Origin: an uncultured Planctomycetia bacterium | GTDB taxonomy: Bacteria > Omnitrophota > Gorgyraeia > 1-14-0-20-64-10 | Reading direction: 5' to 3' | Assembly: GCA_964603095.1 (NCBI GenBank) | Contig: CAZRTR010000001.1 | Coordinates: forward strand, 8,723 to 72,722 | DNA: 64,000 nucleotides | Part shown: piece after piece, positions 16,247 through 63,830 of the stretch | Layout: each line of letters begins with the position of its first letter | Position numbering within the stretch: position 1 is the stretch's first letter | Translations under genes and position numbers: made by a program | Notes under the pieces: model-generated | Seen by the model: the letters and a program-made list of their open reading frames with translations, nothing else | The model's database searches: none | What the model was told of the DNA's origin: nothing

Positions 16247-16275
16247 TTGTCAAGGGAAAAATCAGGTCGTACAAT
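16247..16275 (+). promoter_or_regulatory. sigma70-type promoter for the NSS transporter
   Basis: TTGTCA, a 17-nt spacer, then TACAAT. AAGGAGG lies 6-8 nt upstream of the ATG at 16302. Confidence 0.55.
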
Positions 16276-16301
16276 GTTCCTTAAAACCCAAGGAGGTCCC
16301 C

Positions 16302-17813: not shown

Positions 17814-17820
17814 CCGATTC

Positions 17821-32940: not shown

Positions 32941-35020
<2,080 letters not shown>

Positions 35021-35028
<8 letters not shown>

Positions 35029-42247: not shown

Positions 42248-43217
42248 GCGCAGTGGAGTGGGGTTTCACCTTGACTCGCCAATAGTCGAGGAGATCCTGC
42301 ATCGTCTTTTCGAAGGGGATCTCCGTCTTCCACCCCGTCAGCTGATGAAACTTGGTCCGGTCCCCCTTCAGGATCAGCACATCGCTGGGGCGAAGGCGCT
42401 GCGGATCCACCGCAACGGTGATCTTATGGGAGGTCAACCGGAGCAGAGTCTCCAGAACGTCACGGATGGAGCGGTCGACTCCCGAGCAGAGGTTATAAAC
42501 CTCTCCGGGTTTCCCGTGTTCCAGCGCCAGCCAATATCCGCGGACGATGTCCCGCACATCGCTGAAATCACGTCGGGCATCCAGATTTCCCACTTGGATG
42601 ACCGGCTCCTGGAGTCCGGCCTCGATCAGGGCGATCTGTTTTGCGAAGTTGGAGGTGGCGAAGACCTCTCCTCGACGGGGCCCCGTGTGGTTGAAGGCCC
42701 GGGTGCGGACGATGTGCATCTTGAAGCTTTGGGCATACTGGTAGCCCAGGAGGTCCTGGGTGACTTTGGAAACGGCGTAGGGGCTTAAGGGGCGCAGAGG
42801 GTTCGTCTCTTTGATGGGCAGCTCCTCCTCGTAGACCAGCCCGTACTCTTCCGAGCTTCCGGCCACCTGAATCCGTGTGGGCAGTCCGCATTCCCGGACG
42901 GCCTCCATGAGGTTGAGCTGTCCCAACGTGTTGGTCAACAGGGTCTCGGAGGGGGCGCTCCAGGACATCGGGACGAACGATTGAGCGGCCAGATGAAACA
43001 CCCGATCCGGTTTGACCGCCACGATCACGTTCCGAACGGAGGAGGCGTCCCGCACGTCGCACTCGTGCATCTGGATCCGATGCCGGAGATGCTCGATGTG
43101 GTCGGTCTTGCTGCGCCAGCGCTGAGTCCCAAAGATCTCGACCCCCTTCTGCTGGAGAAGAAACTCCGTCAAATGGCTTCCGACGAAGCCGGTGATTCCG
43201 GTAATCAAGACGCGCAT
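42225..43217 (-). CDS. NAD-dependent NDP-sugar epimerase/dehydratase (GDP-mannose-dehydratase/Rmd-like)
   Basis: MRVLITGITGFVGSHL, the YAVSK catalytic motif and C-terminal SDR-extended features. Only the last roughly 330 aa of the 738-aa annotated ORF look real. Confidence 0.75.
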   Translation of the reverse strand: MRVLITGITGFVGSHLTEFLLQQKGVEIFGTQRWRSKTDHIEHLRHRIQMHECDVRDASSVRNVIVAVKPDRVFHLAAQSFVPMSWSAPSETLLTNTLGQLNLMEAVRECGLPTRIQVAGSSEEYGLVYEEELPIKETNPLRPLSPYAVSKVTQDLLGYQYAQSFKMHIVRTRAFNHTGPRRGEVFATSNFAKQIALIEAGLQEPVIQVGNLDARRDFSDVRDIVRGYWLALEHGKPGEVYNLCSGVDRSIRDVLETLLRLTSHKITVAVDPQRLRPSDVLILKGDRTKFHQLTGWKTEIPFEKTMQDLLDYWRVKVKPHSTAHESSPRA

Positions 43218-47730: not shown

Positions 47731-48529
47731 GCCCCACCGGTCGGTGTCGGGGTTGAAGGGGACCCGCTTCCCTGCGCAAGAGAGCGATCAAGCTCACGCC
47801 GAAGGGGTATCCTTGTCTGCGCTTCCCGGACAGCAGGTCGACGAGGGCCTTGGCCTCCCCCGCGAAGATCTTCTCCAGCACCCGGTTGATCGGCGCCGGC
47901 GGCAGCCGGAAGTCGGTTCCTTCCAGCCCGTCCGTCTTTCTTCGAATCCGGTTCAAGAACCGTATCCCTCGCACGATCGGATAGAGGCGGCTGTTGTAAT
48001 GGGAGACCAGCAGGGGCGTGAGCGGCAGCCCTTCCCACAGGCGCTCCAGGCGTTTCCGGTCGTATCGCCGATAGTGGCCGAAGCTGACGTCGTGGGGGCT
48101 CCATAAGGACATATCGGCCGGGACCGTCAGCAGAAGAACGGCTCCCGGCTTGGCCATCGACATCAGCTCCGATAGAAACAAGAAATCGTCGGGCAGATGC
48201 TCCAGCACGTCCATCAAGAGGAGCAGATCCCCCTGGTTTAAGATCTTGGAGAGGTCCCCCAGGTGACCGGCGGTGAAGAAACGGGCCTTGGGGTTCCGGT
48301 CGCGGGCCCTTCGGATCGCCTCGGCGGAGGCGTCGATCCCGATACACGGGTACTCCTCCGACCATGCCGTCAGGTTCCCGCCGGTTCCGCAGCCGACGTC
48401 CACAATGACTCCCTGAGAGCGAGGGGGCAGCAGATGACCGACCAGAGCGCCGGCGATCCGTCTGCGCCCGAGGAACCACCAGTGCCTCTCCTCCATCCGA
48501 GAATGGAGGGAAAACAACTCCGCTTTCAC
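47720..48529 (-). CDS. class I SAM-dependent methyltransferase
   Basis: VIVDVGCGTGGN motif I. Confidence 0.75.
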   Translation of the reverse strand: MKAELFSLHSRMEERHWWFLGRRRIAGALVGHLLPPRSQGVIVDVGCGTGGNLTAWSEEYPCIGIDASAEAIRRARDRNPKARFFTAGHLGDLSKILNQGDLLLLMDVLEHLPDDFLFLSELMSMAKPGAVLLLTVPADMSLWSPHDVSFGHYRRYDRKRLERLWEGLPLTPLLVSHYNSRLYPIVRGIRFLNRIRRKTDGLEGTDFRLPPAPINRVLEKIFAGEAKALVDLLSGKRRQGYPFGVSLIALLRREAGPLQPRHRPVGHDL

Positions 48530-50085
48530 TGGGGGGCTCTCCGCTTCTGAAATAGGATGACGGGAGGGGCTTCGCGATCGGTCTGAAAACGGTGGTACCC
48601 TGGGTCGGGTCGATTTTGCCAGGGGATGTCGGGAGCGTCAAGGAGAACTTTGCGGTAGCGGGATTGGATTTTCTCGTAGTAGGGGCTGTCGAAGAATCCG
48701 GAGGGAAGCCAATCCCGTCTCAGGATGATCCAGTCCGGGAATGTCTCTTGCCCGAAATCGGCCGGGGATCGGCTCGGTTCCACCTGCAGATCCGTGTAAA
48801 AGAGGATCGGGTGCTCCTCGTAGGGGACCTTGACGGTTTCCCCGGGATGGGCCCGCTCTCCGAGCCATTCGATGATTCCATCCACCGGGCCCCGATAGGG
48901 ATGGCTCAGCTCCCCGAGGAATTCCAGGATCAGAGAACGAGGCCGGACGTCGGGAGAAGACAGATGCGAGCGGATCACCGGCACCTGAGCGGCCAGGACC
49001 GACGGTCCCGAGTAATGAACCAGGTCGGACAGGATCAGCAGCGCCGTGAGAGTGATCCCCAGCCATCGCCGGGCCCGAAACAATCGGATCAACAGAACCG
49101 CCTGGACCAGGTAGAACCAGGGAACCAGATGGATCAGATAACGGAAGTGCCTCTGCTCCGGAATGAGAATGAGGAAGCCGAGCCCGACGCCGATCAGGCA
49201 GCCCACCAGTCGCCATGCCGGTCGTTCAGGGGACGCGGGAGCGCCCCCCATGTTTTCCCCCCGCGGACGGAGCGGGAGCCACGCCAAACCCCAGAACACC
49301 ACCGGAACAAGGAATCGGTTGATCTGACGGAAGTAAAACTGGAGATGATGTCGGATCTGGTCCCAGGAGAAGGGCTGGTGATGCTGTTCCGCTTGGAGGA
49401 AGACCATCCAGGGAAGAGTCAGGGCCGCGACACTCCCTACCACGAGGATTCCGTGGAAGCGGTCTCTCCTCTCGGGTTGAGTCCAAGCAAAGTGGAGCGC
49501 CAAAGAGGCCACGACCGGCAGGAAAGCCCCGTGGTTGGCGTGGAAGAGCAGGACGGAACTCAAAACCAATTCGGGTCCGGACCATCGGCGATGGTGCAAG
49601 AAGCGCCAATAGGCCGATACCACCCAGAGGGAGAAGAAAACGGCCGGCGCGTAATACCGACACTGGCGCATGTGGAGCAGAAGCGGGACCGAGGTGACGA
49701 GGAACAGGAGTGTCAGTCGCGCCACGCCGGGATCTCGGACAAGGCGCTTCATCAACGAGAAGGCCAATCCGATGCTGGCCAACCCGAGAAGGGCGAAAGG
49801 CAGCCGGGCCGCGAGGGTGCTGGGTCCTAGAAGCCAGAACGAGCCGGCGGCCATATACATCGGAAGCCAGGAATGGTACGTCCAGGCGTATCCCCTTCCC
49901 GTCGGAAGGGCCGGATTCAGATGGTTGACGCCGTCGAAGGCGCGGGGGTATCCGTAGCGGAGGGTGTTTCGCCCCAGCACCGCCGTTTCCGCCTCGTCCT
50001 GCCAGAGCCGGCCGTTGCCGAGTTGACTCAACAGGAGCGCCGCTGCCAAGGCCAACAGGGCGGCACCCGTCGGATCCGGCTTCAC
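48526..50085 (-). CDS. ArnT/PMT-like membrane glycosyltransferase (GT39/GT83 family)
   Basis: First-loop DE motif (RLWQDEAETAVLGRN), many TM helices and a C-terminal soluble domain. A GTG start overlaps the upstream TGA (GTGA). Confidence 0.7.
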   Translation of the reverse strand: MKPDPTGAALLALAAALLLSQLGNGRLWQDEAETAVLGRNTLRYGYPRAFDGVNHLNPALPTGRGYAWTYHSWLPMYMAAGSFWLLGPSTLAARLPFALLGLASIGLAFSLMKRLVRDPGVARLTLLFLVTSVPLLLHMRQCRYYAPAVFFSLWVVSAYWRFLHHRRWSGPELVLSSVLLFHANHGAFLPVVASLALHFAWTQPERRDRFHGILVVGSVAALTLPWMVFLQAEQHHQPFSWDQIRHHLQFYFRQINRFLVPVVFWGLAWLPLRPRGENMGGAPASPERPAWRLVGCLIGVGLGFLILIPEQRHFRYLIHLVPWFYLVQAVLLIRLFRARRWLGITLTALLILSDLVHYSGPSVLAAQVPVIRSHLSSPDVRPRSLILEFLGELSHPYRGPVDGIIEWLGERAHPGETVKVPYEEHPILFYTDLQVEPSRSPADFGQETFPDWIILRRDWLPSGFFDSPYYEKIQSRYRKVLLDAPDIPWQNRPDPGYHRFQTDREAPPVILFQKRRAPQ

Positions 50086-51074
50086 CCCGCCCTTCTCGCC
50101 AGGGCCACCAGGTTGGGCGCCAGATGCCCTATGGATCCCCCCCGAAGAAGTTGCTCCAGCCGGGAGAGACGGTGGAAGAGGGAACGCCCCAGATGCCGTT
50201 TCCAATCCAGAATCCAGGGACTGGGATACTGGTAGTAATGGCCGACGTACAGGTGCCACACAGGGGTCTGGACCGGACTGGCGATGGACATCTGGAACAC
50301 CTTCAGCCCCGCCTGCCCCAGCATCCGGTTCAAGGTTTGATCCGTGTAGTGGACCACGTGCTCATAGGAGTCCCAGATTCCCTGCTGGGGGCGGCGTCCC
50401 ATCCGCAGGAGCATCTCCTGCTTGAACCGACTCCAGCGCCCGTTGGGGACCTTGATGTAGACGATCCCGTCTTTGGCCAGGAAGCGGACGACGTCACCCA
50501 GAAACTCCTTTGGGTTCGGAACGTGTTCGAGGACGTCGCTTAGGGCGATGACGTCGAAGGAGCCCTCTTCGTTCTTCGGAAGCTCGCGGAGAAAACAGTT
50601 GTACACCTGGAAACCCCAATGCTGGGCGGCTAGCTGTGACACGGAGGGGGAGGGCTCCACTCCCACCGCCGTCCAGCCCATCCGCTGGGCCCATCGCAGC
50701 AGCATCCCCAGGTTGCAGCCGACATCCAGAAACCTTCCCTCGGGCTTGTGCCGTCGGATCAAGTGCAGCTCCTCCCGATAGTTGGGGTCCCGGTGATGAG
50801 GGGCCTTCCCCTCGAAGATCAGCCGCGCCTCATCGAAATAGGCGTCCCGGTCTCCCCAGTAGATCTTCTCGGGAGCCCGGATTCGTGGGCAGGTATAGAC
50901 GAGGGAACAGGAGAGGCACTGGGAGATGCCGATCGATCCGTGCTCGGTGTAGATCCGCTGGCGCCGGTTGCTGCCGCACAGGGGGCACGGAACCGTGACG
51001 ACCTCCTCTGGAGAGTATTCGTCCTTCTGGGTTCCTCCTCGGATGTAGGACTGGGATTCTTCAATGAGAGCCAT
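50082..51074 (-). CDS. class I SAM-dependent methyltransferase with an N-terminal zinc ribbon
   Basis: CPLCGS...CLSC zinc ribbon, then LDVGCNLGML motif I, DVIALSDVLEH. Confidence 0.75.
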   Translation of the reverse strand: MALIEESQSYIRGGTQKDEYSPEEVVTVPCPLCGSNRRQRIYTEHGSIGISQCLSCSLVYTCPRIRAPEKIYWGDRDAYFDEARLIFEGKAPHHRDPNYREELHLIRRHKPEGRFLDVGCNLGMLLRWAQRMGWTAVGVEPSPSVSQLAAQHWGFQVYNCFLRELPKNEEGSFDVIALSDVLEHVPNPKEFLGDVVRFLAKDGIVYIKVPNGRWSRFKQEMLLRMGRRPQQGIWDSYEHVVHYTDQTLNRMLGQAGLKVFQMSIASPVQTPVWHLYVGHYYQYPSPWILDWKRHLGRSLFHRLSRLEQLLRGGSIGHLAPNLVALARRAG

Positions 51075-53175: not shown

Positions 53176-54480
53176 TTAGGCCCTTGGGGAAAGGACCTGT
53201 TGGTTAAGAGCCGGGTTCACGGGAATCACGGGAACCGATGGCTCTGGAACGGCCTCGCGGCGGATCAGGAGCTGGGAGCTCAGCCCCGTCGCCAGACCGG
53301 CGAGAGACCAAAACAGGGTGGCCTGGCGCAGGGCGTAAAGATTGGTGTCAAACAGGGATTGCACCAGGAAGGCCAGCAGGCCGGCCGCCAAGCCCAGCAG
53401 AACCACCCGCAATCCGGCCGGATCCTCCTCTGGGGAGGTGTCCGGTTTCCGGAGGGCCATTCTCCAGGTGGCGAAGAGTGCCCCAAGAAACAGGAGGAAG
53501 GTAACCAGCCCCGGGATTCCCGTCTCGGCGGCGATCTGGAGGAAGCAGTTGTGGGCGTAGGCCGGCCCGTTGTTGGGGCCGATGGCGTAGTCAATAAAAT
53601 TGGCCATGAAGGTATTGAGCCCCTGCCCCAGGAACGGCCTGGCCTCAATCATCTTCCAGGCGGTTCCCCACATGACGGTTCTGTCCCTTAAGCCCACGTC
53701 CGAAAAGGTCAACATGTCAAACAGTTGGTTCCGTCGGAAGAAGAGGAACGCCAACCCGGTCCCCAGCAGAAGACCCGCTCCCATCCGAATCTTCTTTCGC
53801 CCGGAGAAAAATAAGAGAAACAGCAGGCCGGTCCACAAACCGATGAGGGCTCCGCGAGACAGCGTCCAGGCGATGCAGCCCAGCAGCAGGAGCGTCGAGG
53901 TCCAGAGCCGGAGGCGATCTTGCGCCGGCCGGTTCAAGACCTGAGCGATGACCACCAGCACCACCACCATCAGAAAGGTGGCCAGGTCGTTGGGGTTCTC
54001 ATAAGGCCCCACCATCCGGGAATACTCCAGCCGTCTCCCGCGAATCCAATCGGTTCCTGTCCACTGCTGGAGGATGGCGTACAATCCCACCAGCCAACCG
54101 GCCAGCATCAGGGCGCGAAAGCCCTGGCGTCCGGCCAGAGGATGATCCGAGGCATCCACGAAAATGACAAACAGGAGGGCGTACTCCGACGTCTTGCGGA
54201 TGAGGCCCTGCAGACTTAAGGAGGGATGAGTGCTTGAGAAAATCGATGTTGCGCAAATTCCATAGTAGGCCAGGAGGGCATAGAAAGCGAACTGGAGCAG
54301 ACGCGGCGTCTTGCTCGGGGTGGGGCCCCGGCTGGGAGAATGCCACCCCCTCCACCAGGTGAGGAGCATGAGGGGGAAAAGGATCTCAATAGCCGCCTTG
54401 GAAAATGGGATGGCGAATAGCAACCCGGTGGCCAGCATTCGAGTCAACCGGCGCGCGCCCTGCGTGCGCGGATCCGTCAT
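53176..54480 (-). CDS. O-antigen ligase (WaaL/Wzy_C) family membrane protein
   Basis: About 12 TM helices with a large periplasmic loop; the Wzy_C-like region is near HNCFLQIAAETGIPG. Confidence 0.7.
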   Translation of the reverse strand: MTDPRTQGARRLTRMLATGLLFAIPFSKAAIEILFPLMLLTWWRGWHSPSRGPTPSKTPRLLQFAFYALLAYYGICATSIFSSTHPSLSLQGLIRKTSEYALLFVIFVDASDHPLAGRQGFRALMLAGWLVGLYAILQQWTGTDWIRGRRLEYSRMVGPYENPNDLATFLMVVVLVVIAQVLNRPAQDRLRLWTSTLLLLGCIAWTLSRGALIGLWTGLLFLLFFSGRKKIRMGAGLLLGTGLAFLFFRRNQLFDMLTFSDVGLRDRTVMWGTAWKMIEARPFLGQGLNTFMANFIDYAIGPNNGPAYAHNCFLQIAAETGIPGLVTFLLFLGALFATWRMALRKPDTSPEEDPAGLRVVLLGLAAGLLAFLVQSLFDTNLYALRQATLFWSLAGLATGLSSQLLIRREAVPEPSVPVIPVNPALNQQVLSPRA

Positions 54481-56288
54481 CGTTCCGCGGCTGCGGTCGA
54501 TTCGTCGACACCGGCGGAGGTGACCACCCTCCAGTTCAGCCCGTTCTCCTCGCAATAGCTGCGGATCTGCTGGACAAGATCCGGGGGGGGGCGGCGCATG
54601 GCGACCAGGATTTCCCCCACCGCCAGCTCCTTCACCACCTTTCCCAGATTGTGTCGGGACCCCAGGATCGGGATTCCATGGATGCGGGCTCCGTGCTTGG
54701 TCGCGTCATCATCGAGAAAGCCGATGATCCGGCGCGTCCCAAGACTCTCCATGCTTAGCTGTTGCAGCAACAACTCTCCCGTATCCCCTGCCCCGAAGAT
54801 GAGAACGCGGGTGGCCCCTCTCAGGGAGACGGAGGATCGGATCCATTCGTTCAGCAACGGCTCGATGAGTCGAGCCCCACTGACCGACACGAACAGCAGC
54901 AATCCATCGATGACAAAAACGGCGCGGGAGTAGCCCTCAAATCGCCACAGATAAAGGACGACCAGCGAAGAAAGGACGGATCCAGTGATCACAGCACGAA
55001 GGATGTTCACCAGGTCCGGAAGGCTGATGTACCGCCAGACTCCCCGGTACAGCCCGCAGGAAAAGAAGCAGGCGATCTTCACCAGGATGATCCAGGGCAG
55101 CGACTGCAGGATCAATCCTTCGAGATCGGAGCTCAGATTCCCCTCGAACCGAAGGGCATGGGCGATGATATAGGAGGCCCAGATCAGGGCAAAATCCACA
55201 CAGACTTCGACCAGCCGACGTTTATGCAGCAGCATCGTTTCAATGAGGGTGACGCGCGACCCCATGGTTGAGGCCTCCACCCGGGTGTAAACACGGACCT
55301 TCGCCAGATAGGCCCCCACACCCAGAAGCAAGCCGATGACCAGCAGGGAGATTCCGGCGACCGCCATGATGTTCTGCCTGGAGACGAGCACGCTCACGAC
55401 TCCGAAGGCGGCGCTTAAGCCGTACAGGGTGAAGACGACCTGCCGAGGGGTCAGCCCCAGGATGACCAGGCGATGGGACAGATGGTCCGTGCCCCCTTGG
55501 AAGGGGTGCCGGCCATGGGAGAGCCGCTGGATGGTGACGAAAAAGGTATCGAAGATCGGAACTGCCAGCAATAGAGTCGGCAGAGCGACGATGCCCAAGA
55601 GGCGGGTCGGCTGATGCCACGTTCCCAGCAGGGCCAATGCCCCCAGCCCCAGTCCGAGCACCTGGCTTCCGGTGTCTCCCAGGAAGATCTTGGCCGGCGG
55701 GAGGTTGTAGTGGAGGAATCCCAATGTGGCCCCGCACAAGCTGGCGGAGATCAGGGCGACGGGCCACTGGCCGGTCTGAAGGGCGTGCCAGGCGCAGAAG
55801 GCGGCGGCAATCGCTCCGATTCCGCCGGAAAGGCCGTCCATATTGTCCATCAGATTGTAGGCGTTGATCACGAGGACGAGCCACCCAATCGTCAGCGGGA
55901 TGGTGATCCAGGGAATAGCCGCCATGTCCACCCGGATACCGGAGAGGACCACGAGGCACCCCGACAGGATCTGGGCGATCAGCTTGGAGTAGGGATGGGT
56001 CCCCCTCAGATCGTCGATCAGCCCGACGAGGGCCATGAGAATCCCGGCCAGAATCAGGCCTGCCATCCGGGGGTCATGGCGGACCACCCAGCCGGCGCTC
56101 GCCAGGAAGCTCAAGACGATGGGAAGGCCTCCCAACCGAGCGACCACCCGCCTTCCCCACCGGTCTTGAGAAGGACGCGACACGCAACCGACCGAGATGG
56201 CGAAGGAGCGAACCAAAGGGGTCAGAAGAAGGACGCACAGGTAAGAGCCGACACCGAATATCGCCGCGTTGAAAAGGGGTGGGCTCAT
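54477..56288 (-). CDS. WecA/MraY-like polyprenyl-phosphate HexNAc-1-phosphate transferase fused to a PglF/WbaP-type 4TM + Rossmann-like domain
   Basis: The N-terminal roughly 330 aa fit the Glycos_transf_4 family (DDLRG, NAYNLMDNMDGL, VFLGDTGS). The C-terminal roughly 270 aa have 4 TM helices plus RVLIFGAGDTGELL...IIGFLDDD...GIPILG, resembling the N-terminal modules of WbaP/PglF/CapD. Confidence 0.7.
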   Translation of the reverse strand: MSPPLFNAAIFGVGSYLCVLLLTPLVRSFAISVGCVSRPSQDRWGRRVVARLGGLPIVLSFLASAGWVVRHDPRMAGLILAGILMALVGLIDDLRGTHPYSKLIAQILSGCLVVLSGIRVDMAAIPWITIPLTIGWLVLVINAYNLMDNMDGLSGGIGAIAAAFCAWHALQTGQWPVALISASLCGATLGFLHYNLPPAKIFLGDTGSQVLGLGLGALALLGTWHQPTRLLGIVALPTLLLAVPIFDTFFVTIQRLSHGRHPFQGGTDHLSHRLVILGLTPRQVVFTLYGLSAAFGVVSVLVSRQNIMAVAGISLLVIGLLLGVGAYLAKVRVYTRVEASTMGSRVTLIETMLLHKRRLVEVCVDFALIWASYIIAHALRFEGNLSSDLEGLILQSLPWIILVKIACFFSCGLYRGVWRYISLPDLVNILRAVITGSVLSSLVVLYLWRFEGYSRAVFVIDGLLLFVSVSGARLIEPLLNEWIRSSVSLRGATRVLIFGAGDTGELLLQQLSMESLGTRRIIGFLDDDATKHGARIHGIPILGSRHNLGKVVKELAVGEILVAMRRPPPDLVQQIRSYCEENGLNWRVVTSAGVDESTAAAER

Positions 56289-58105
56289 CCCCGGTCGTTC
56301 TGAAGCAAGAGTGTCATCCCCCGGATGGAGGAGTAGAAAAACAGCCCGAGGCCCAGCATCCCCACGATCCGGAAAGGAGCTACCGTTACCCTTCCGAAGC
56401 GCCAGAGGCCTTCCCTTTCTTCAAAGGAGAAGTAGGCGACCAGATCTTTGGCCAACGTCCCTCGGGGGTCGACGCTAAAAGACCGTTTCACCTCATGGAA
56501 CCGGTTCCCCAACCCCTGTCGATACAAATCGGTCCTCTCTTCAGGAGTCAGCGCCTTCTTCCAGATGCCCACCTCGTCCAGCCGCCCGGTCAGCCGAGTG
56601 CCGTCGATCTCCGTCGTTTCGGAGAAAGATCCAAGGGTGAACTCTGAAGTCCCATCCGCGGGAGATTTTCCTCCCGGCAGAGGGGCCGTATCGATGGGGC
56701 CGTCATTGACCTGTATGGAGAGGGTGTTGAGCCCCGCTGCGTTGGTCTGGTGCCAGGCGGCGACCCAGTACCAGTTCCGGCCGCTGACCGCCCCAAAGCG
56801 GGTGGAATAAACGCTCCAGGAATCGGAGCCGTCTCCTACGCGGAACTCAAATGTCTTCCGATTGGAATTGTAACGCAACAGATATTCGATGGCGTTGGGA
56901 AAACGGGGATCGGCCTTGGCTAACAGGGTCGATTCCCTCTCCTTCTCCAGGTAGACCCAAGCGGCCACGGTGAAATCGACGTCCCCCATGCTCAGGTCCG
57001 GGCGATCCTTGGATTTCAGAAGATGCCCCTTGTCGGCCACAAAGCGGGCGGCCGAACCGACCTTCCCGGCGGCGGTCGGCGCTCCGTGAGGATTGGACAG
57101 AGACCATCCCCAGGGTCCCGTCCGTGCCATGTTGGAAAGGTCTGGGATCTTCAAGGCGGACAGGCGCCAGGGTCCTTCGCTGAATAGCCAGCCCTTCCAA
57201 CCCCGTATGGGAGAAGGGGCCACCCAGATGACTGGAGGGAGCAGGGCCCGCCGCTCGGGCAGATCCCATCGATTGTGCCCGGAGGAGGCGACGACGGTGA
57301 TCTGCCGATCGGTAATCTCCCGGATGATGTCCGATAGAGAACGGGAAGCCCACCATCCTCCGAACGAGAGGACAACGACACCGGCTTCCTGTTCCATCGC
57401 GTAGTCCAGCGCCTCGCAGACCAAGGAGGTGGATAGCCAGGGGCCTGGGCCGACCCGCAGCGGAAGGAGAGACGGCTCCGGGTTCTCTGAGGCGCGAAGA
57501 CAGGCCAGGGCGACCTCCGTTCCGTGGGATTTGAACCATCCCTCTCCGCGGACGTCCGGGTTTCCGTCGTAAAAGTCAAAACCCCGGTGGTCGTCGATGT
57601 AACGGTTCCCGTCGTTATCCAAGCGGTCCCCAGGGACTTCGGCCATGTTCCGGATCCAGCCGTGCTCCGTCTCCGGGTGAGTCTGGTCGAATCCGGTGTC
57701 CAGGAGAGCCACCTTCTTGTTCAGACCCGCCCGGTGCCCAGCCACTGCGCCTGTCCCGGTCGTGTCCACCGTATAAGACAGGGCCTCCAGCCTGTAGTTC
57801 GGCTCCGCGTACAGAACAGAGGAGAAGGCGCCCAACCGGTCAAGAACCTTCAGCACCGGGAGCGCTTCCGGAAAGGAAAGAAGGTAGAGGCCGGGAGGGA
57901 ACAGCTCCCGCTCGAGGTGCCCGCCGACCGCCTCGGCAATCTGTTTCAATTCATACAGGGGGGCATTGGGCTGGAACTGGACCAGGACCTGTCCAGGGGG
58001 GAAATCCATCCAGCTCAACTCCTGGTCTGCGCCCGCAGTTCCGGCAGATGCAAGAAGGAGACACAGGAGTGCGCTGAATAAACCCGCGCCTTTACTCCCG
58101 TTCAT
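56285..58105 (-). CDS. subtilisin-like (S8) serine peptidase with a C-terminal LamG/ConA-like lectin domain and a TM anchor
   Basis: Signal peptide, a propeptide-like region (YAEPNY), then DTG (VALLDTGFD), HGT (KSHGTEVA), GHN and GWSLSNPHGAP (GTSxAxPH-like). A LamG domain follows (DFTVAAWVYL...GRLDEVGIWKKALTPEE), then a C-terminal hydrophobic helix. Confidence 0.7.
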   Translation of the reverse strand: MNGSKGAGLFSALLCLLLASAGTAGADQELSWMDFPPGQVLVQFQPNAPLYELKQIAEAVGGHLERELFPPGLYLLSFPEALPVLKVLDRLGAFSSVLYAEPNYRLEALSYTVDTTGTGAVAGHRAGLNKKVALLDTGFDQTHPETEHGWIRNMAEVPGDRLDNDGNRYIDDHRGFDFYDGNPDVRGEGWFKSHGTEVALACLRASENPEPSLLPLRVGPGPWLSTSLVCEALDYAMEQEAGVVVLSFGGWWASRSLSDIIREITDRQITVVASSGHNRWDLPERRALLPPVIWVAPSPIRGWKGWLFSEGPWRLSALKIPDLSNMARTGPWGWSLSNPHGAPTAAGKVGSAARFVADKGHLLKSKDRPDLSMGDVDFTVAAWVYLEKERESTLLAKADPRFPNAIEYLLRYNSNRKTFEFRVGDGSDSWSVYSTRFGAVSGRNWYWVAAWHQTNAAGLNTLSIQVNDGPIDTAPLPGGKSPADGTSEFTLGSFSETTEIDGTRLTGRLDEVGIWKKALTPEERTDLYRQGLGNRFHEVKRSFSVDPRGTLAKDLVAYFSFEEREGLWRFGRVTVAPFRIVGMLGLGLFFYSSIRGMTLLLQNDRG

Positions 58106-59144
58106 GGAGCGGCTTCGGAGAACCCAAGCGGATGGGGTCCATCTCCTTCTTGTAGTAGGCGATGACGCTTTCCAAGATGTCGCTCAGATTCATGGTCGGA
58201 GTGAAGCCGACGAAGCGCTTCGCCTTGGAGATATCCGGAACCCGCCGGGCCATATCTTCAAAACCTTCCTCATAGGCCTGATCGTAGGGAATGGTGACGA
58301 TGGATGAGCGGCTTTCCGTCCGTTGGATGACCAGTTGGGCGAGACGTTCGATGGTGACCTCCTCCTGGCTTCCGAGGTTAAACGCCTCGCCGGCTGTGCT
58401 GGGCAGTTCCATCAGTCGAACGATGGCCTCGACGGCGTCCTGGACATGAAGAAAACAACGGCTCTGTCTTCCGTCTCCGTAGACGGTCAACGGTTCCCCC
58501 CGCAGGGCTTGTTGAACGAATCGGGGGATAACCATCCCGTAGGCCCCTGTCTGACGGGGCCCGACGGTATTGAACAGCCGGACGATGACCGTCGGGATCC
58601 CTTTCTCTTTCCAGTAGGTATAGGCCAAGATTTCGTCCACCGCCTTGGAAGTCGAGTAGGCCCACCGGCTCTTTAAGGGGGATCCGAGAATTCGGTCCTC
58701 ATCCTCTCTCAGAGGGCCGTTGGCGTTCTTTCCGTAGATCTCGGAGGTGGAGGTGATCAACACCTTCTTCCGATAGCGGTACGCCATCTCCAGGACCGTC
58801 TCCGAGCCCCGAATGTTGGTCGTGAGGGACTCCAGGGGGTGCTTGACGATCAGCTCCACCCCCACGGCCGCCGCCAGGTGGAACACCCCGTCCACCCGTT
58901 CCACGAGCTTGTCCACCAAGGTTTCGTTGAGGATGGATCCGGTCACCAGATGGAAGGAGGGGTTTTCTTGCAGGTGGGCGACGTTCTCCAGGCGGCCCGT
59001 GGAAAAATTGTCCAGCGCCGTCACGTCGTCTCCTTGACGAAGGAGAGCTTCCGCCAGATGAGAACCGATAAAACCGGCTCCTCCCGTAACCAAGATCTTG
59101 CGGGGTGTCATCGTCACTGTTTTCTCGCGATGATTATAACTCAA
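58092..59144 (-). CDS. UDP-glucuronate decarboxylase / UDP-xylose-synthase-like SDR (ArnA C-terminal-domain-like)
   Basis: ILVTGGAGFIGSHL, ALDNFSTG, YSTSK catalytic triad region. It closely resembles the UXS/ArnA decarboxylase subfamily. The start may be an internal M at about 59111. Confidence 0.75.
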   Translation of the reverse strand: MSYNHREKTVTMTPRKILVTGGAGFIGSHLAEALLRQGDDVTALDNFSTGRLENVAHLQENPSFHLVTGSILNETLVDKLVERVDGVFHLAAAVGVELIVKHPLESLTTNIRGSETVLEMAYRYRKKVLITSTSEIYGKNANGPLREDEDRILGSPLKSRWAYSTSKAVDEILAYTYWKEKGIPTVIVRLFNTVGPRQTGAYGMVIPRFVQQALRGEPLTVYGDGRQSRCFLHVQDAVEAIVRLMELPSTAGEAFNLGSQEEVTIERLAQLVIQRTESRSSIVTIPYDQAYEEGFEDMARRVPDISKAKRFVGFTPTMNLSDILESVIAYYKKEMDPIRLGSPKPLHERE

Positions 59145-60364
59145 ACCTTCCCTTTCTCCTGCTGCAATTGTTCATAGAGTAGAGAGATATCCTTCAGGAG
59201 CCGTTGAGATGGGAACCTCTGAAGGGCATACGCTCTGGCCGATTCCCCAAGCGATTTTCGAAGCTCCGGCTGCCGGCCCAACGTCTGAAGGGCCGAGGCC
59301 AGGCCTTCCGCGTCTCCCGGGCGGACCATGACCCCGCGAGAGGTCAGCCGGAATGTCCCTGGAGAGATTTCCCGGTTTCGCTCCGAGGGTTCTTCCAGCA
59401 GATCCGGGACTCCTCCGACCTGCGTAGCAACCACCGACCTGCCTGCGGCCATCGCCTCGATCAGCGAGAGAGGGGTCCCTTCGTTCCACGAGGTGAGACA
59501 GACCAGATCCAGTTTCCCATAGATGGGGAGAAGGTCATGCTGCCAGCCGGTGAACCGAATGGAGGAGGCCAGGCCCCGCCGCATCGTCTCCCTTTCCATC
59601 TCTTGCCGAAGAGGCCCATCCCCCACCACCGTTGCCTGAAAGGAGATGGTTGGATCTCTCTGACGAAGCAGGGAGGCGGCCTCCAGGAAAAGAAGGGGAT
59701 TCTTGATCGGCGCCAGGCGCCCCACGAGCCCGCACCGTAAGCCGACAGTTCGAGGTGTTCCATTCAGCGGAAGTCGGGCGTAGCGGTCCAGGCCGAGCCC
59801 CAGAGGGATCACGCGCCACTGGTGGGGGCGTCCGATCCCCTTCCGGAGCAGGTCATCCCGAATTGCGGGACTGACGGCGATCAGACAGTCCGTGTGACGG
59901 GCCAGCCATCGTTCGATGGAAAGGAAGGTCTGTGAAGTGCAGCTGGAGAAGTAACCCTCCAGGACGTGGCCGTGGAAGGTATGGATCAGCGTTGCCCCGG
60001 CCCCTCTTCTGCGGCCGGGGCCGAAACGGTTGTACGCCAGGCCGGCCAGGCGGCCCAGAGAACCGGCCTTGGCCATGTGGGTATGAAGGATCTGGGGCCG
60101 TTCCTTCCACAGGAGTCGAAGAAGTCGAGCCAAGGAAAGGAGATCGGACACGGGCCGGAGCGATCGGCGCAACGTTTTCATCCGGACGATCCGAGGGATG
60201 GAATCCGGCAGGAGGGGACTGTAATCCCCTTCCCTTTCCTCCGGCTGGCCAAAGACCAGGCAGGTGGTGAACCGTTGAGGGTCAAGGGACGAGGAGAGAA
60301 TGGATGCATGGATCGCCGGCCCTCCGATGTTCAAACGGGTCAGGATCCGAACAATTCGTATCAC
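59141..60364 (-). CDS. GT4 glycosyltransferase
   Basis: GT-B fold with the C-terminal EX7E region (LTSWNEGTPLSLIEAMAAG). Confidence 0.8.
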   Translation of the reverse strand: MIRIVRILTRLNIGGPAIHASILSSSLDPQRFTTCLVFGQPEEREGDYSPLLPDSIPRIVRMKTLRRSLRPVSDLLSLARLLRLLWKERPQILHTHMAKAGSLGRLAGLAYNRFGPGRRRGAGATLIHTFHGHVLEGYFSSCTSQTFLSIERWLARHTDCLIAVSPAIRDDLLRKGIGRPHQWRVIPLGLGLDRYARLPLNGTPRTVGLRCGLVGRLAPIKNPLLFLEAASLLRQRDPTISFQATVVGDGPLRQEMERETMRRGLASSIRFTGWQHDLLPIYGKLDLVCLTSWNEGTPLSLIEAMAAGRSVVATQVGGVPDLLEEPSERNREISPGTFRLTSRGVMVRPGDAEGLASALQTLGRQPELRKSLGESARAYALQRFPSQRLLKDISLLYEQLQQEKGKV

Positions 60365-60386
60365 GGGCGGGAACCGGCTCAGGGGC

Positions 60387-62144
60387 TCATCCGAAATCCC
60401 AGAGAGATTTTTCCTCTTCGAAGGGATAGATGACGACCAGGCCGTCCGCCAAGGCGCCTTGGGTGTCCACGGAGAAGGCCCTTCGAGCGGGGAGGTAGGG
60501 GTTCCCCTGGCCTCTGTTAAACAGGTCTGTCCGTTCTTGTGGGCTTAAGACCCGTTTCCAGACGGCGACCTCATCGATCCGGCCGTTCATGAATCCTTGA
60601 TTGGAATCGAAGTTGGAGTAATAGCCGATCCTCAGGTCGTAGGTGCTGTCATAGCTGGAGACGCCTGGGGGAAGCTCCAGCCCCTTCGGATCGATCGGCT
60701 GGTCGTTGACCTGGATGTGGATCGTGTTTCGATTCGGTCCCCGGGTATCGTGCCAGGCCACGATGAAGTACCAGGACCCGGTGGCCACCGGGCCGATTCC
60801 TTCCATCGGTATGGTTCGGCCATCGAAGCCGTTTCCCACAGCGAATTGAAAGTGGTCCTCCCCGGGGAGATATCGAAGGAGATACTCATTGGTGGAATTC
60901 CGGCTGGAATCCCCCTTGCTTAAGAAAATCATCTCATCTTTGCTGTCCAGATAAACCCAGGCGGCAATGGTGAAATCGATATCCCCCATGCTCAGATCGG
61001 GGCTGTCGGGCAACCAGAGATACTGGGCGCGTTCCCTTTGAAACTGGGCGGCCAGACCGATCTTCCCTGGAGCGCAGGTGACGGTGTGATGGTCCCTCAG
61101 GCGGTTCCGGTGGCGCCGGGGAGGGGCCACGCTGGAGCGATCGGGAAGACGCAGGTGCTTCAGGCGCTTTGAGGCGGAGGAGAAGAAACCGGCCCTCCAA
61201 TTCTTTTCCTCCACCGCGGCGACCCAAACCACCTGGGGGAAGTTGGACATGGCCTTGAGCCATTGGGAGCTTTCCTGGCCCGCCGAGGCGATCAGGATGA
61301 CCTGCTGTTGCGCGGCGTAGCCCACCGTGTCGATCAAGCTCTGGGATTTCCACCACCCCCCGAGGTTCAGGTTGACGATGTTCGCCCCCTGGCCGACGGC
61401 GTAGACGATCGCTTCGCACAGGGTGGCGGTGGAGAGCCAGGGGCCGTTTCCCACCCGCAGCGGCAGGAGGGAGATCTCCGCCTCCCGGCTTCCGGAGATG
61501 ACTCTCCCCACGGCCTCCATCCCCCGCGCCTTGAATTCCCCCTCTCCTAGAGGGTCCGGGTCCCGCTCATAGAAATCGTAGCCCTGAAAGTCGTCGACGT
61601 AACCGTTGCCGTCGTTGTCGAAGCCGTCTCCCGGAATCTCCCCCTGATTGACATGGAGCCGCTTCCAGAAATAGGGATGTTTCAGATCAAAGCCGATGTC
61701 CAGAACGGCGACGGTCGTCCCGGAAGCCGCCGCTTGTCCGCTTACCGCCGCCGCTCCACGGGAGGAGACAGACTGGTCGAAGGCAGGGAGCTGGTAGTTC
61801 GGCTCCGCATAGAGGATGGAAGGGTGCGCTTGAAGCTGCTGGACCACCGTCCCCACCTGCCGGGAGGCGGGGAAGGTCAACAGATACAGGCCCCACGGGG
61901 CCAGCTCCTTGTTGACCGTGACGTTGCACTCCCGGGCGATCTCCTTCATCTGGGCCAGGGAGGTTTCGAGTGAAAACCGGGCGAGGACCTGACCTGAAAC
62001 CGGTGAAGGAGGGTTATCGGGTAGGGCCAGGGGAAGCGGAGTCGTTCGGCCCGAGACTTCCCCCACCCATCCCCAGACCCAGGAGAGTCCTCCCAGCAAC
62101 AGGAGCAGCCCGAAGATGCGCAGGAATCGTTTTTGAGTAAGCAT
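60387..62144 (-). CDS. subtilase-LamG paralog with a degenerate catalytic triad (probable pseudo-peptidase)
   Basis: Collinear with 56285..58105, including NDGNGYVDD, but His is replaced (KARGMEA), Asn becomes Gln (SAGQES) and the Ser motif is not recognisable. The LamG domain is intact (DFTIAAWVYL...GRIDEVAVWKRVLSPQE). It has a signal peptide and no C-terminal TM helix. Confidence 0.65.
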   Translation of the reverse strand: MLTQKRFLRIFGLLLLLGGLSWVWGWVGEVSGRTTPLPLALPDNPPSPVSGQVLARFSLETSLAQMKEIARECNVTVNKELAPWGLYLLTFPASRQVGTVVQQLQAHPSILYAEPNYQLPAFDQSVSSRGAAAVSGQAAASGTTVAVLDIGFDLKHPYFWKRLHVNQGEIPGDGFDNDGNGYVDDFQGYDFYERDPDPLGEGEFKARGMEAVGRVISGSREAEISLLPLRVGNGPWLSTATLCEAIVYAVGQGANIVNLNLGGWWKSQSLIDTVGYAAQQQVILIASAGQESSQWLKAMSNFPQVVWVAAVEEKNWRAGFFSSASKRLKHLRLPDRSSVAPPRRHRNRLRDHHTVTCAPGKIGLAAQFQRERAQYLWLPDSPDLSMGDIDFTIAAWVYLDSKDEMIFLSKGDSSRNSTNEYLLRYLPGEDHFQFAVGNGFDGRTIPMEGIGPVATGSWYFIVAWHDTRGPNRNTIHIQVNDQPIDPKGLELPPGVSSYDSTYDLRIGYYSNFDSNQGFMNGRIDEVAVWKRVLSPQERTDLFNRGQGNPYLPARRAFSVDTQGALADGLVVIYPFEEEKSLWDFG

Positions 62145-63069
62145 CGGTTTGAGATTGCGCTGGATGGCCCCTATTATAGCATTTTAAAGACTCCAAGTAA
62201 TCTCGGACGGTCAAGAATCGGATGTCGGGGAATGCGGCCATCGTTCGGAAAAGGGCCACCTGATCTTCCTGCACGCGCCGCCAGTCGTGCTCGAAGAGGA
62301 GGTATCGAAATTCGAACCCGTAGGTTTGTGAAGGCCTCAGGTACTTCCAGGACCATTGGGCCTTGCGCTGTCTGCCCCGCTGTGCGTTGAGATCCTCCGC
62401 GTGGAAGACGAAGACGATCGGCTTGCCCGTGAGCCGGCTCTCCCCATGGAGGACCCGGAAGAACCACCGCATGAACCCTAAGCCCAGCAACCGTTCCGAG
62501 TTGGAGACGAACGGAAGGATCCAGGCCGACACGGGAATCTCCCAGAGCCGGCCGTTTCCCTTTCGGTACGGGTTGGACCACGAGGGATGATAAGGAAGGC
62601 GGGGGGCCCACAGGGGAGCCAGATTCGTGATGTCGGATCCGAGAGCCCCGAGTCGCTGGGAATTGACCGAAAGATCGGCCCGATAACCCAGCCCCTCCAG
62701 GATCCTCATCGTTTGCCCCGAAACCTTGAAGGCGGGGGCTCGAAAACTGATCGGCGGCTCTTCCAACAGACGACTCAACCGCTCGGTGGCCTGTTGAAGG
62801 AACCGTTCCTGCCGTGAAACCGGAAGCCGGCTGTAGATCTCGGAGGGATCATGGGTCAACCCGTGACATCCGATCTCGTGGCCTTCCCTCCGCAGCCCAT
62901 CCACCTGCCCCCGGAGCATCTCCGCCGATTCGGCCGGGAAGAAGAAGGTGCAGGGCAGCCGCGTCTCGCGGAGGATTTGACGGGCCGACTGGAGGTCCCG
63001 ATCGACCTGCTCCGCCCCAGCGGTGTGGGTGTGGATATCGCAGGTCAACAGAACCGGCACCTCCGTCAT
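62014..63069 (-). CDS. polysaccharide deacetylase (CE4 family; ArnD-like candidate)
   Basis: LLTCDIHTHT..., GHEIGCHGLTHD is a NodB-domain His/Asp pattern. The start is trimmed to MTEVPVL. The 3' end overlaps the next gene by about 130 nt. Confidence 0.7.
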   Translation of the reverse strand: MTEVPVLLTCDIHTHTAGAEQVDRDLQSARQILRETRLPCTFFFPAESAEMLRGQVDGLRREGHEIGCHGLTHDPSEIYSRLPVSRQERFLQQATERLSRLLEEPPISFRAPAFKVSGQTMRILEGLGYRADLSVNSQRLGALGSDITNLAPLWAPRLPYHPSWSNPYRKGNGRLWEIPVSAWILPFVSNSERLLGLGFMRWFFRVLHGESRLTGKPIVFVFHAEDLNAQRGRQRKAQWSWKYLRPSQTYGFEFRYLLFEHDWRRVQEDQVALFRTMAAFPDIRFLTVRDYLESLKCYNRGHPAQSQTDAYSKTIPAHLRAAPVAGRTLLGLGMGGGSLGPNDSASPGPTR

Positions 63070-63830
63070 GGTTTCTCCGCGGAGACGATCCAGATGCCGG
63101 CCATCCTCCGGATCCCCGGGATCGGCTCTGCGATCCGGTCGATTCCCTTGAACAGCCAGAGCCACGAGGCCGGCGCCACGGTGGGGGTGAAGAGGAAACT
63201 GCGCGCCCGGCTGTTTTGGAAGCCGGACTGGGCGAGGAGGGACAGAAGTTGCGGTTCGGTGAACCAGTGGTCGTGGGGATGCGGTTCACTGCCGAGCACC
63301 TGTTTGAGATAAAACCAGGGGCACCACCGGTTGGGGAAATCGGCCACCAACCGGCCTCCCGGCTTTAAGACCCGACGGGCGCTCCGCAACGCCCGATCCA
63401 CTCTTGGAAGATAACGGAAAGTGGAGAAGGAGACCGCCCCATCAAATGCGTTGGATGGAAACAGATCCAGGGATTCGGCATCATCGATGAAGAAAGAGGC
63501 CCGATCCAACCCTTCCTGCCGCGCCCGTCGCTTGGCCACCTCCACGGAATGGGGGGACAGATCGATCCCCGTCATCCGGTATCCCCGGCGAGCGAGGGGA
63601 AGGGAGAATTGACCCACCGAGCAGCCGATCTCCAGAAGATGGCTTCCCGGTGGGAATGCCCCCAGTTCCAGAGCCGCTTGAAGCTTCCGGGATCGGAAGT
63701 AGGCCTTCGCGGGGCTTACCTCTTCATACGTTCCCTGGCCCCGGAACTCCCGCTCCGAGAAACGGTCGTACCGCCGCTGAATCTCCGCCTTGATCCGGGC
63801 GTCCACGGAGGTCGGCGGATTTAGATCCAT
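63066..63830 (-). CDS. class I SAM-dependent methyltransferase
   Basis: LLEIGCSVGQF motif I, VLKPGGRLV. Confidence 0.78.
   Translation of the reverse strand: MDLNPPTSVDARIKAEIQRRYDRFSEREFRGQGTYEEVSPAKAYFRSRKLQAALELGAFPPGSHLLEIGCSVGQFSLPLARRGYRMTGIDLSPHSVEVAKRRARQEGLDRASFFIDDAESLDLFPSNAFDGAVSFSTFRYLPRVDRALRSARRVLKPGGRLVADFPNRWCPWFYLKQVLGSEPHPHDHWFTEPQLLSLLAQSGFQNSRARSFLFTPTVAPASWLWLFKGIDRIAEPIPGIRRMAGIWIVSAEKP

Follow-up and report, generated by a model that had tools for sequence, protein, structure and literature searches.

The stretch analysed here, called the window below, is a 64,000-nt piece of the genome of an uncultured Planctomycetia bacterium (placed in the Omnitrophota by GTDB; positions 8,723 to 72,722 of contig CAZRTR010000001.1, assembly GCA_964603095.1). 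Near its end the minus strand carries two paralogous genes, copy 1 and copy 2, whose products join a part of a subtilase (peptidase family S8) to a LamG lectin module. We use X for the gene family, L002p and P0014 for the X proteins of the related loci L002 and L038, and P0150 for the X fragment of locus L039. The two proteins are 43% identical over 551 aa (BLASTP, E=1e-142), and the Fervidolysin_NPro-like, Peptidase_S8 and Laminin_G_3 domains all lie above the Pfam gathering scores in both of them. The pro-domain PF22148, N-terminal to S8, scores 32.9 and 38.7 bits in the two copies (cut-off 21), and PF13385 scores 54.4 and 66.7 bits (cut-off 27.6) over profile positions 5–149 of 151; for PF13385 a binding-site motif is not defined. 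The pro-domain of copy 1 was predicted by AlphaFold2 (AF2) as a beta-alpha-beta-beta-alpha-beta fold, with values of the predicted local distance difference test (pLDDT) above 95. According to hydropathy, both copies have a hydrophobic, signal-like N-terminus, and a C-terminal hydrophobic helix is present only in copy 1 (residues 573–591). The stop codon of copy 2 follows directly after ...LWDFG, 22 nt ahead of the start of the next gene, which encodes a glycosyltransferase of family GT4, and thus no anchor is hidden there. Hence the paralogy and the shared architecture (signal peptide, propeptide-like region, S8, LamG) that a first-pass annotation had read from the letters are borne out, as are its membrane helix in copy 1 and the missing anchor in copy 2; its LamG assignment, for which it had named a hidden Markov model (HMM) search as the refuting check, holds in that search. 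The gene starts used here (58105 and 62144) differ from those in the NCBI annotation of contig CAMTXL010000003.1 (metagenome-assembled genome (MAG) GCA_947085735.1), which are placed at 58009 (copy 1, Met33, 574 aa) and 61949 (copy 2, Met66, 520 aa). The public starts strip the signal peptides and part of the pro-domain, and the homology to relatives reaches upstream of them. The long open reading frame (ORF) of copy 2 begins inside the polysaccharide-deacetylase gene upstream of it, the two sharing 131 nt at the 3' end of the latter (62014–62144), and there is no Shine-Dalgarno-like sequence ahead of the start of either copy.

The S8 part of both proteins ends early. An HMM built from 8 intact Omnitrophica S8 peptidases of about 600 aa, which have the motifs DTG, HGT, AAAGN and GTSFSAPF, aligns copy 1, copy 2, L002p and P0014 only to nodes 298–312, equivalent to residue 313 of copy 1 in the strand "SFSNYG". 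The comparison of the family profile with the intact-relative profile using hhalign covers only query columns 32–314 (probability 100%, E=6e-70), and the Pfam S8 match spans profile positions 5–158 of 288 in copy 1 and 2–198 of 288 in copy 2. The three methods concur that S8 homology in both copies and in three other lineages stops at about residue 314. Hence no family member has a counterpart of the Ser221 loop, of helix F or of the C-terminal helices. In Foldseek, the catalytic-domain-only entries superpose over about 160–180 columns at about 2.5 Å, and the best overall matches are unautoprocessed pro-subtilisin E, pro-Tk-subtilisin, SUB1 with its pro-domain, fervidolysin and PCSK9. Within the remaining part, the catalytic Asp (D32 equivalent) is kept in LLDTGFD of copy 1, VLDIGFD of copy 2, VIDSGFD of L002p and LLDAGFD of P0014, which align with the DTG of the intact relatives. 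The catalytic His (H64 equivalent) is present in copy 1 (KSHGTEV), L002p and P0014, and is Arg in copy 2 (KARGMEA). In the column of the oxyanion Asn155 there is His277 in copy 1 (ASSGHN vs AAAGNxG, with Asn at +1), Gln in copy 2 (ASAGQES) and Lys in L002p, and P0014 is not alignable at this place. Copy 1 scores 243 bits and copy 2 302 bits against the intact-relative HMM, and in all pairwise comparisons copy 1 stands farthest from the rest of the family. The first-pass annotation had stated that copy 2 lost His, Asn and Ser, which is right for the two substitutions above and the missing Ser motif, and has to be corrected in that its S8 domain is truncated, not merely mutated. For copy 1 it had listed a retained D, H, N and Ser motif, of which only D136 and H194 hold, since the oxyanion position is His277 and the supposed Ser motif lies beyond the S8 homology. 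Considering that the Ser221-bearing segment is missing in every member, it is most likely that neither copy is a serine protease.

That supposed Ser motif, GWSLSNPH, occupies residues 333–340 of copy 1, where S8 homology has already ended, within the linker and the first LamG strand. The spacing from xP[DN] to GK[VI]G is exactly 24 residues in all four full-length members, so that the linker positions are orthologous, and the position of copy 1 S335 is R, Q and R in the other three. The sequence before GK[VI]G, from which the LamG module runs onward, is NRLRDHHTVTCAPGKIG in copy 2, TQLVNHNNVTSVDGKVG in L002p, NRLKNHRSVTASEGKVG in P0014 and GWSLSNPHGAPTAAGKVG in copy 1, and the consensus start of LamG modules is ..N.LTDNNTVT..GKVG.AAQF; the signature N.L.D..TVT is carried at the linker position by copy 2, L002p and P0014. 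An HMM of 143 LamG modules taken from unrelated multi-LamG proteins scores 202–231 bits across the members and starts at residues 336–353 in the other three (equivalent to 331–332 of copy 1), and at residue 340 in copy 1. A position-specific scoring matrix (PSSM) of the LamG N-terminus gives +12.0 bits for copy 2, +4.5 for P0014, +2.5 for L002p and −14.9 for copy 1. A LamG strand is the ancestral state of this stretch, from which copy 1 has diverged. With a PSSM of 120 real GTSxxxPH plus helix F segments, the 8-residue core of copy 1 obtains +4.5 bits (real motifs: median 30, minimum 4.5), and its flanks obtain −19.4 bits in the six upstream columns and −22.3 bits in the sixteen helix F columns, together −42. 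A core score as high was found in 5.1% of shuffled whole proteins and in 1.25% of shuffles of the local 60 residues, and the Ser-motif HMM gave no positive alignment. Moreover, there are only 12 residues, including Pro, Gly and Pro, from S335 to the LamG start at G347, which leaves no room for helix F. In all likelihood GWSLSNPH thus resembles a Ser motif by chance, in a linker that has diverged. An AF2 model of copy 1 residues 1–365, made with a 52-row alignment biased toward the Ser reading (GWS under GTS), has pLDDT values of 85–98 for the pro-domain and the S8 core to about residue 275, and below 50 for residues 279–287 and 300–342 (the blocks in 301–340 average 37–41). The helix predicted at 345–364 in this model was rejected as an artefact, because the sequence there is the first LamG strand and the S8 rows were force-aligned to it. 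Chimeric rows (trimmed S8 plus LamG module) aligned well; a deep alignment mixing S8-only and LamG-only rows was dropped because MAFFT stacked half of each S8 row onto LamG columns.

The family is very rare, being found in about four lineages. In an exhaustive HMMER search over 1.84 billion representative proteins, in which a protein with both S8 and LamG parts would score well above the weakest match listed, the junction or the anchored tail was covered only by copy 1, copy 2, P0002 (a fragment), P0014 and P0150 (a 157-aa fragment), and all other top matches were LamG repeat proteins or intact S8. Four multi-stretch matches (P0085, P0120, P0137 and P0145) were rejected as S8-LamG proteins, being tandem complete S8 domains without LamG. 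We relied on this search and not on a word-indexed protein search with copy 1, which returned only 4 matches and missed copy 2. Among 185,579 species, each represented by one genome, the scan gave a single full-length relative, L002, in a MAG labelled Planctomycetia; L002p is anchored and encoded in a single copy, and its identity is 47% with copy 1 and 53% with copy 2. When JGI metagenomes were scanned for motifs specific to the family, one contig emerged, L037, from the same lineage as L002. The active/dead pair that the first-pass annotation had seen as an arrangement is not conserved, as the other genomes carry a single, anchored copy of X. In neighbour-joining bootstraps rooted on P0014, copy 2 grouped with L002p in 84% of the replicates; in 16% it was copy 1 that joined L002p, and in 0 of 500 did the two copies fall together; therefore the duplication is probably old and both copies have been kept, although the tree may also point to a strong acceleration of copy 1. 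Between L002 and L037, the ratio of nonsynonymous to synonymous substitution rates (dN/dS) of X is 0.57 for the whole gene (by segment: S8-like part 0.33, LamG 0.52, tail 0.69), and that of the adjacent wecA-like gene is 0.23, which indicates that selection on X is purifying yet relaxed. Members that are only 34–54% identical keep the architecture, the linker length, five invariant Trp residues and the anchor motif. The five Trp (copy 1 residues 223, 251, 252, 294 and 303; window about 57197–57439, minus strand; in GPWLST, GGWW, (I/V)WVA and GWK) are absent from intact S8 relatives, and may cover the face bared by the loss of helix F or form a new binding surface.

Table 1. Features of the two X genes and of the adjacent genes in the window
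Feature	Position	Strand	Basis
Copy 1, 606-aa pseudo-subtilase-LamG protein with C-terminal membrane anchor	56285..58105	-	ORF; Pfam NPro, partial S8 and Laminin_G_3; Logan gene call of 606 aa
Copy 1 residues 1-26, signal-peptide-like hydrophobic N-terminus	58028..58105	-	Kyte-Doolittle segment 5-26; equivalents in copy 2, L002p and P0014
Copy 1 residues 34-103, fervidolysin-type pro-domain	57797..58006	-	PF22148, E=8e-8; AF2 pLDDT 85-98; best Foldseek matches are unautoprocessed pro-subtilisins
Copy 1 residues 131-322, S8-like remnant covering roughly two thirds of the fold from its N-terminus; D136, H194, His277 at oxyanion position	57140..57715	-	HMM, hhalign, Pfam
Copy 1 residues 323-346, 24-residue linker and first LamG strand; look-alike GWSLSNPH at 333-340	57068..57139	-	Equal length in 4/4 members; PSSM tests; AF2 pLDDT <50
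Copy 1 residues 347-530, LamG_3 (ConA-like) module	56516..57067	-	PF13385, E=2e-14; 202 bits against HMM of 143 LamG modules
Copy 1 residues 531-572, conserved post-LamG tail ..ERTDLY..G.GN.....R.FS.D..G.L...LV.Y..FE....LWRFG	56390..56515	-	Conserved in all members, also after many other LamG modules
Copy 1 residues 573-591, C-terminal transmembrane helix, motif [DEA]PF[PR]x[IV]G..G..LF.YSS	56333..56389	-	Hydropathy; conserved in L002p, P0002, P0014 and P0150
Copy 2, 585-aa paralogue of the same architecture, His to Arg, no C-terminal anchor	60387..62144	-	ORF, Pfam, BLASTP, alignment, hydropathy
Copy 2 residues 141-335, S8-like remnant; D149 kept, H to R, N to Q	61140..61724	-	Pfam profile positions 2-198/288; intact-relative HMM to residue 320
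Copy 2 residues 360-545, LamG_3 module; preceding strand NRLRDHHTVTCAP fits LamG-module consensus	60510..61067	-	PF13385, E=3e-18; LamG N-terminal PSSM +12 bits
GT4 glycosyltransferase, conserved neighbour	59141..60364	-	Pfam; same gene adjoins X in L002 and L038
Extended short-chain dehydrogenase/reductase (SDR), NDP-sugar dehydratase/decarboxylase; UXS-like, but unproven	58092..59144	-	Pfam; NCBIfam all below cut-off; conserved in L002, L038 and L039
WecA-like polyprenyl-phosphate sugar-phosphate transferase with CoA_binding_3	54477..56288	-	Pfam/NCBIfam; start overlaps copy 1 stop by 4 nt (ATGA), likewise in L002 and L037
Wzy_C (O-antigen ligase/polymerase family) membrane protein	53176..54555	-	PF04932; conserved in L002 and L038
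Polysaccharide deacetylase-family gene upstream of copy 2	62014..63165	-	ORF; Pfam

Both copies lie in a glycan locus that extends on one strand from about 42.2 kb to beyond 64 kb, with three GT2 genes, several methyltransferases, two GT9 heptosyltransferase-like genes and the Wzy_C, WecA-like and deacetylase genes of Table 1, and past the window end it goes on with PMT_2 and radical-SAM genes. There is no recognisable Wzz in the locus, which is an assembly locus of the lipopolysaccharide (LPS) core/O-antigen-like type. The rest of the window is housekeeping, including a TonB-dependent receptor and ExbB, and since these and the GT9 heptosyltransferases are encoded in the window, the organism is regarded as a diderm with LPS. 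The gene order in L002 is GT4, SDR, X, WecA-like/CoA_binding_3, Wzy_C, and that in L038 is Glyco_trans_1_2, ?, ?, X, GT4, SDR, WecA-like, Wzy_C::GT9. In L037, X is followed by a WecA-like gene with the 4-nt overlap also seen at copy 1; in L039, the fragment P0150 has an SDR/epimerase gene 271 nt downstream, with a 76-aa opposite-strand ORF between them. The window carries X at both positions known from the other loci; therefore the association with the gene set is conserved and the pair is not. The same GT4, SDR, WecA-like and Wzy_C neighbours in three independent lineages support the link to glycan biosynthesis that had been proposed in the first pass. Its UXS/GT4 pair between the two copies is confirmed for the GT4 and for an extended SDR and not for UXS: the best sub-threshold NCBIfam scores of the SDR are 176 bits for a LegB-like family and 170 for dTDP-glucose 4,6-dehydratase, both below their cut-offs too, and UDP-xylose synthase (UXS) and ArnA come only after these, with 150 bits for the UXS/ArnA-type model NF008872 (cut-off 294).

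Some other genes of these loci are unusual themselves. In the product of the WecA-like gene, a WecA/MraY-family domain (PF00953) is joined to a C-terminal half whose match is the first ~220 residues (transmembrane region plus CoA_binding_3) of polyprenyl glycosylphosphotransferases of the WbaP/exopolysaccharide (EPS) type (TIGR03025 positions 2–223). This hybrid of two initiating-transferase families occurs in all related loci (window 54477–56288, minus strand; L002 11779–13587; L037 1212–3020; L038 10975–12774). In L038 (12771–14984), Wzy_C is fused to a GT9 heptosyltransferase domain in a protein of 737 aa, and this fusion supports an LPS-core ligase role of the Wzy_C gene. The glycan locus of the window also encodes a 577-aa ORF without a Pfam or NCBIfam family (48526–50259, minus strand), and a 738-aa protein in which an N-terminal half of about 400 aa without a family precedes a GDP-mannose-4,6-dehydratase-like SDR (42225–44441, minus strand). 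Outside the locus, there are two tandem galactose-1-phosphate uridylyltransferase-like (HIT-family/DUF4921) genes upstream of glycolysis genes (34036–36082, minus strand), and a 527-aa ORF without a Pfam family beside the TonB-dependent receptor (16247–17830, plus strand), which is the only long plus-strand ORF scanned, the rest being almost wholly minus-strand coding.

On balance, we lean towards the reading that both genes encode secreted, non-catalytic pseudo-subtilase-LamG proteins, which serve as membrane-tethered, periplasm-facing accessories of an LPS-like glycan pathway. The architecture, the loss of the catalytic segment, the rarity, the conserved synteny and the purifying selection are observed, and the localisation, the glycan binding and the partner enzymes are inferred. 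The X protein would be exported by a Sec-type signal peptide, followed by a fervidolysin-type pro-domain that could not be auto-cleaved, by the first ~190 S8 residues ending after the strand equivalent to "SFSxxG", by the 24-residue linker, by one LamG_3 module and by a tail of about 40 residues. The C-terminal transmembrane helix of copy 1 and of the single orthologues, lost in copy 2, would hold it on the periplasmic face of the inner membrane of the diderm, and copy 2 would be a soluble periplasmic variant. The X gene is probably co-transcribed, and often translationally coupled, with genes for the enzymes that would build and transfer an undecaprenyl-linked glycan, and its product may act as a binding or scaffold accessory to these glycan-assembly enzymes (WecA-like, GT4, SDR and the Wzy_C ligase/polymerase). 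The LamG module could hold the glycan or its lipid-linked intermediate, and the S8 remnant locked by its pro-domain could work as a rigid module for protein interactions in the manner of PCSK9 or CspC, and help Wzy_C or the initiating transferase. A more specific form of this reading, which we offer tentatively and regard as rather unlikely in full, is that the family forms a dedicated periplasmic subunit of WecA/Wzy_C (WaaL- or Wzy-like) glycan assembly in Omnitrophota/Planctomycetota-like bacteria: a pro-subtilase cut after its seventh strand would have been combined with a lectin module and an anchor, its dead cleft (D and H kept, pro-domain locked) and the five Trp would bind the lipid-linked glycan or the ligase in replacement of a Wzz-type co-polymerase or a ligase adaptor, and the anchored and soluble paralogues would share the job.

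Several points weigh against the reading of non-catalytic accessories. LamG_3 modules of the X type are generic building blocks of giant surface proteins. The dN/dS of 0.57 rests on 65 substitutions and is a fairly relaxed constraint. There is no confident full-length structure, as the AF2 model of full-length copy 1 with a 3-sequence family alignment has a mean pLDDT of 36.7. Copy 1 keeps D136, H194 and a G-x-S-x-S-x-P-H string at roughly the correct distance, and D and H are retained in L002p and P0014 too, both of which are without the Ser. A naive MAFFT alignment of the N-terminal part puts GWSLSNPH exactly under GTSMATPH, phmmer against thermitase likewise aligns it with the Ser motif of thermitase, and the shuffle p of the core, about 0.01–0.05, is low yet not negligible.

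Among the alternatives, the X proteins could be products or targets of the pathway rather than accessories of it, that is, envelope glycoproteins which are O-glycosylated on an Ala/Pro/Ser-rich linker by the Wzy_C enzyme, acting as an oligosaccharyltransferase of the PglL/PilO/WaaL type, or by a nearby PMT_2 GT-C enzyme. Wzy_C-family enzymes include protein O-oligosaccharyltransferases, and a PMT_2-family GT-C is also encoded at the locus. In a preprint, a WaaL is postulated to mediate the glycosylation of the adhesin EmaA (bioRxiv 10.1101/2022.10.31.514599). Residues A, P, S and T abound in the variable linker (NPHGAPTAAGKVGSAA in copy 1; RSSVAPP in copy 2), the X gene is tightly linked to the glycan genes, and a relaxed dN/dS is typical of surface proteins. 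However, the linker sequence varies among the members, there is no defined or conserved acceptor motif in it, and with GT9 heptosyltransferases beside Wzy_C, or in L038 joined to it in one protein, the enzyme looks like an LPS core/O-antigen ligase rather than a protein oligosaccharyltransferase. We therefore consider such an acceptor role unlikely.

The C-terminus of copy 1 invites another explanation. Its residues 576–606 (56288–56380, minus strand) consist of the anchor motif and a short, partly basic end, and are kept in four lineages, with L002, L037, L038 and L039 included. The tail might thus be a sorting signal of the PEP-CTERM/exosortase kind, whereby the anchor would be removed and the protein would be attached to, or released into, the outer envelope or the EPS of the locus. 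Beyond the conservation, such a signal would fit the succession of a Pro-containing motif, a transmembrane segment and a short basic end (RRT, R..., K.K), and related Omnitrophica LamG proteins have PEP-CTERM domains (P0276); the GT4, the deacetylase and the C-terminal half of the polyprenyl-phosphate transferase (PNPT) also have their best, sub-threshold matches to XrtA-system families, but these scores are far under the cut-offs. Furthermore, neither PF07589 nor any NCBIfam sorting-signal model matches the isolated tails even at E<=10, there is no exosortase or sortase in the 64-kb window and no exosortase in the related loci, and no other ORF of the compared loci carries the tail. A sorting signal is accordingly improbable, and the sortase-like exoprotein system suggested in the first-pass annotation is not supported.

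Slightly more improbable still is the model put forward there, that copy 1 is an active, anchored subtilase (D136, H194 and S335, with an unusual short Ser loop and His/Asn at the oxyanion site) which matures an envelope glycoprotein, and copy 2 its regulatory dead partner. Besides the retained D136 and H194 and the two alignments mentioned above, it is favoured by 5 of 8 identities of GWSLSNPH with GTSMATPH and by a higher score of the core in the S8 PSSM (+4.5) than in the LamG PSSM (−6.6 bits) over the same 8 columns. Yet the homology of the HMM and hhalign comparisons stops at 313–314, helix F and about 50 C-terminal core residues have no counterpart with LamG beginning at G347, and the flanks of the motif are strongly negative. 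In addition, S335 is not conserved at the orthologous positions, Asn155 is replaced by His, and AF2 stays below a pLDDT of 50 over 300–342 in spite of the favourable alignment; copy 1 is the most diverged member, and the pair is not conserved in other genomes. That copy 1 is probably active is thus not supported. That the genes are decaying relics, left functionless and drifting after a fusion or deletion had damaged a subtilase gene, with the duplicate as a recent segmental copy, is very improbable: the loss of the catalytic third of the fold, the narrow spread over about four lineages, the fairly high dN/dS, the anchor lost in copy 2 and the fast evolution of copy 1 would agree with it, but the ORFs of about 600 aa are intact with the same architecture across the divergent members, dN/dS is below 1 in every segment, family-specific residues such as the five Trp are invariant, synteny and translational coupling are conserved, and copies 1 and 2 are not mutual closest relatives.

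The reading as non-catalytic accessories, if true, would describe a drastic route to a bacterial pseudo-enzyme, in which a third of the fold was deleted instead of a few residues mutated, and the remnant was reused with a lectin module in a surface-glycan pathway. It would also add an extra accessory component to O-antigen/LPS-type assembly in poorly known, uncultivated bacteria of the PVC group. The family illustrates the recycling of LamG modules from giant adhesins, and it shows that motif spotting (D, H and GxSxxxPH) would mis-annotate copy 1 as an active S8 peptidase. As the family is tiny, the wider impact is modest. In literature searches we found no account of an S8-LamG combination, or of LamG in O-antigen pathways, in agreement with the statement of the first-pass annotation that the arrangement is not a described one. 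What we have is a rare fusion of a bacterial pseudo-protease and a lectin module in a conserved glycan-locus context, with a function that we infer.

The closest relatives of residues 30–314 are the intact Omnitrophica S8 proteins (P0067, P0153; fervidolysin 1r6v), with 243–316 bits and 33–39% identity, and the two named ones are annotated as "S8 family serine peptidase [Candidatus Omnitrophica]". They share with X the pro-domain, the calcium-loop insertion DNDGNGY(I/V)DD and LRVGPGP, but they have the full triad and fold, a C-terminal coiled-coil instead of LamG and the transmembrane helix, and a position outside a glycan locus. The gene of P0153 (L040 1–10643; L041) has that of a giant protein of >6000 aa on one side and an OmpA-like gene on the other, which suggests that the intact relatives process or accompany a giant surface protein. 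This giant protein was considered as a source of the LamG module and rejected, since there is no LamG module in its examined part. For the other half of X, the module and the tail are 30–40% identical to those of tandem LamG_3 proteins (L033, P0006–P0066) from MAGs of Planctomycetia, the candidate phyla radiation (CPR) and DPANN, and share the signatures N.LTDNNTVT..GKVG.AAQF, LSMGDxDF and GRIDEV.IWKR.LT..ER..LYN.G.G. These are giant surface or RHS-like repeat proteins, in contrast to X without an S8 part and without the X-type C-terminal anchor, and the same LamG module is widespread in CPR and DPANN MAGs. One of them, a Planctomycetia MAG protein of at least 2368 aa (L033 73–7179; also L005), has two LamG modules with the X signature and the post-LamG tail, and a long hydrophobic region rich in Gly, Ala and Ser.

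Three further systems are similar by analogy. Wzz and other polysaccharide co-polymerases (PCP) resemble X in a predicted hydrophobic N-terminus, a large periplasmic domain, a C-terminal transmembrane segment and a gene within a WecA/Wzy_C-type locus, whereas they have no sequence or fold similarity to X, and the N-terminal segment of X looks like a cleavable signal peptide. PCSK9 retains its bound pro-domain and works through binding, not through proteolysis of a substrate. It is like X (PDB 5vlh is among the Foldseek matches) in its succession of a pro-domain, S8 and a C-terminal beta-rich domain, and differs in being eukaryotic, competent for one autocleavage and complete in its S8 fold, with another C-terminal domain. 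The Csp pseudoproteases of Clostridioides difficile (CspC and CspA) have lost catalysis and have a binding or regulatory role, while their paralogue CspB is active (PMC7200643, PMC6636752). Like X, they are bacterial subtilisin-like non-catalytic proteins encoded beside paralogues. However, they keep a complete S8 fold with point changes in the triad, whereas in X the Ser221 loop, helix F and the C-terminal third are replaced by LamG; X is without an active paralogue, and is associated with glycan assembly in a diderm instead of spore germination. The Csp proteins and X are thus no close homologues, and the likeness between them is a functional analogy only.

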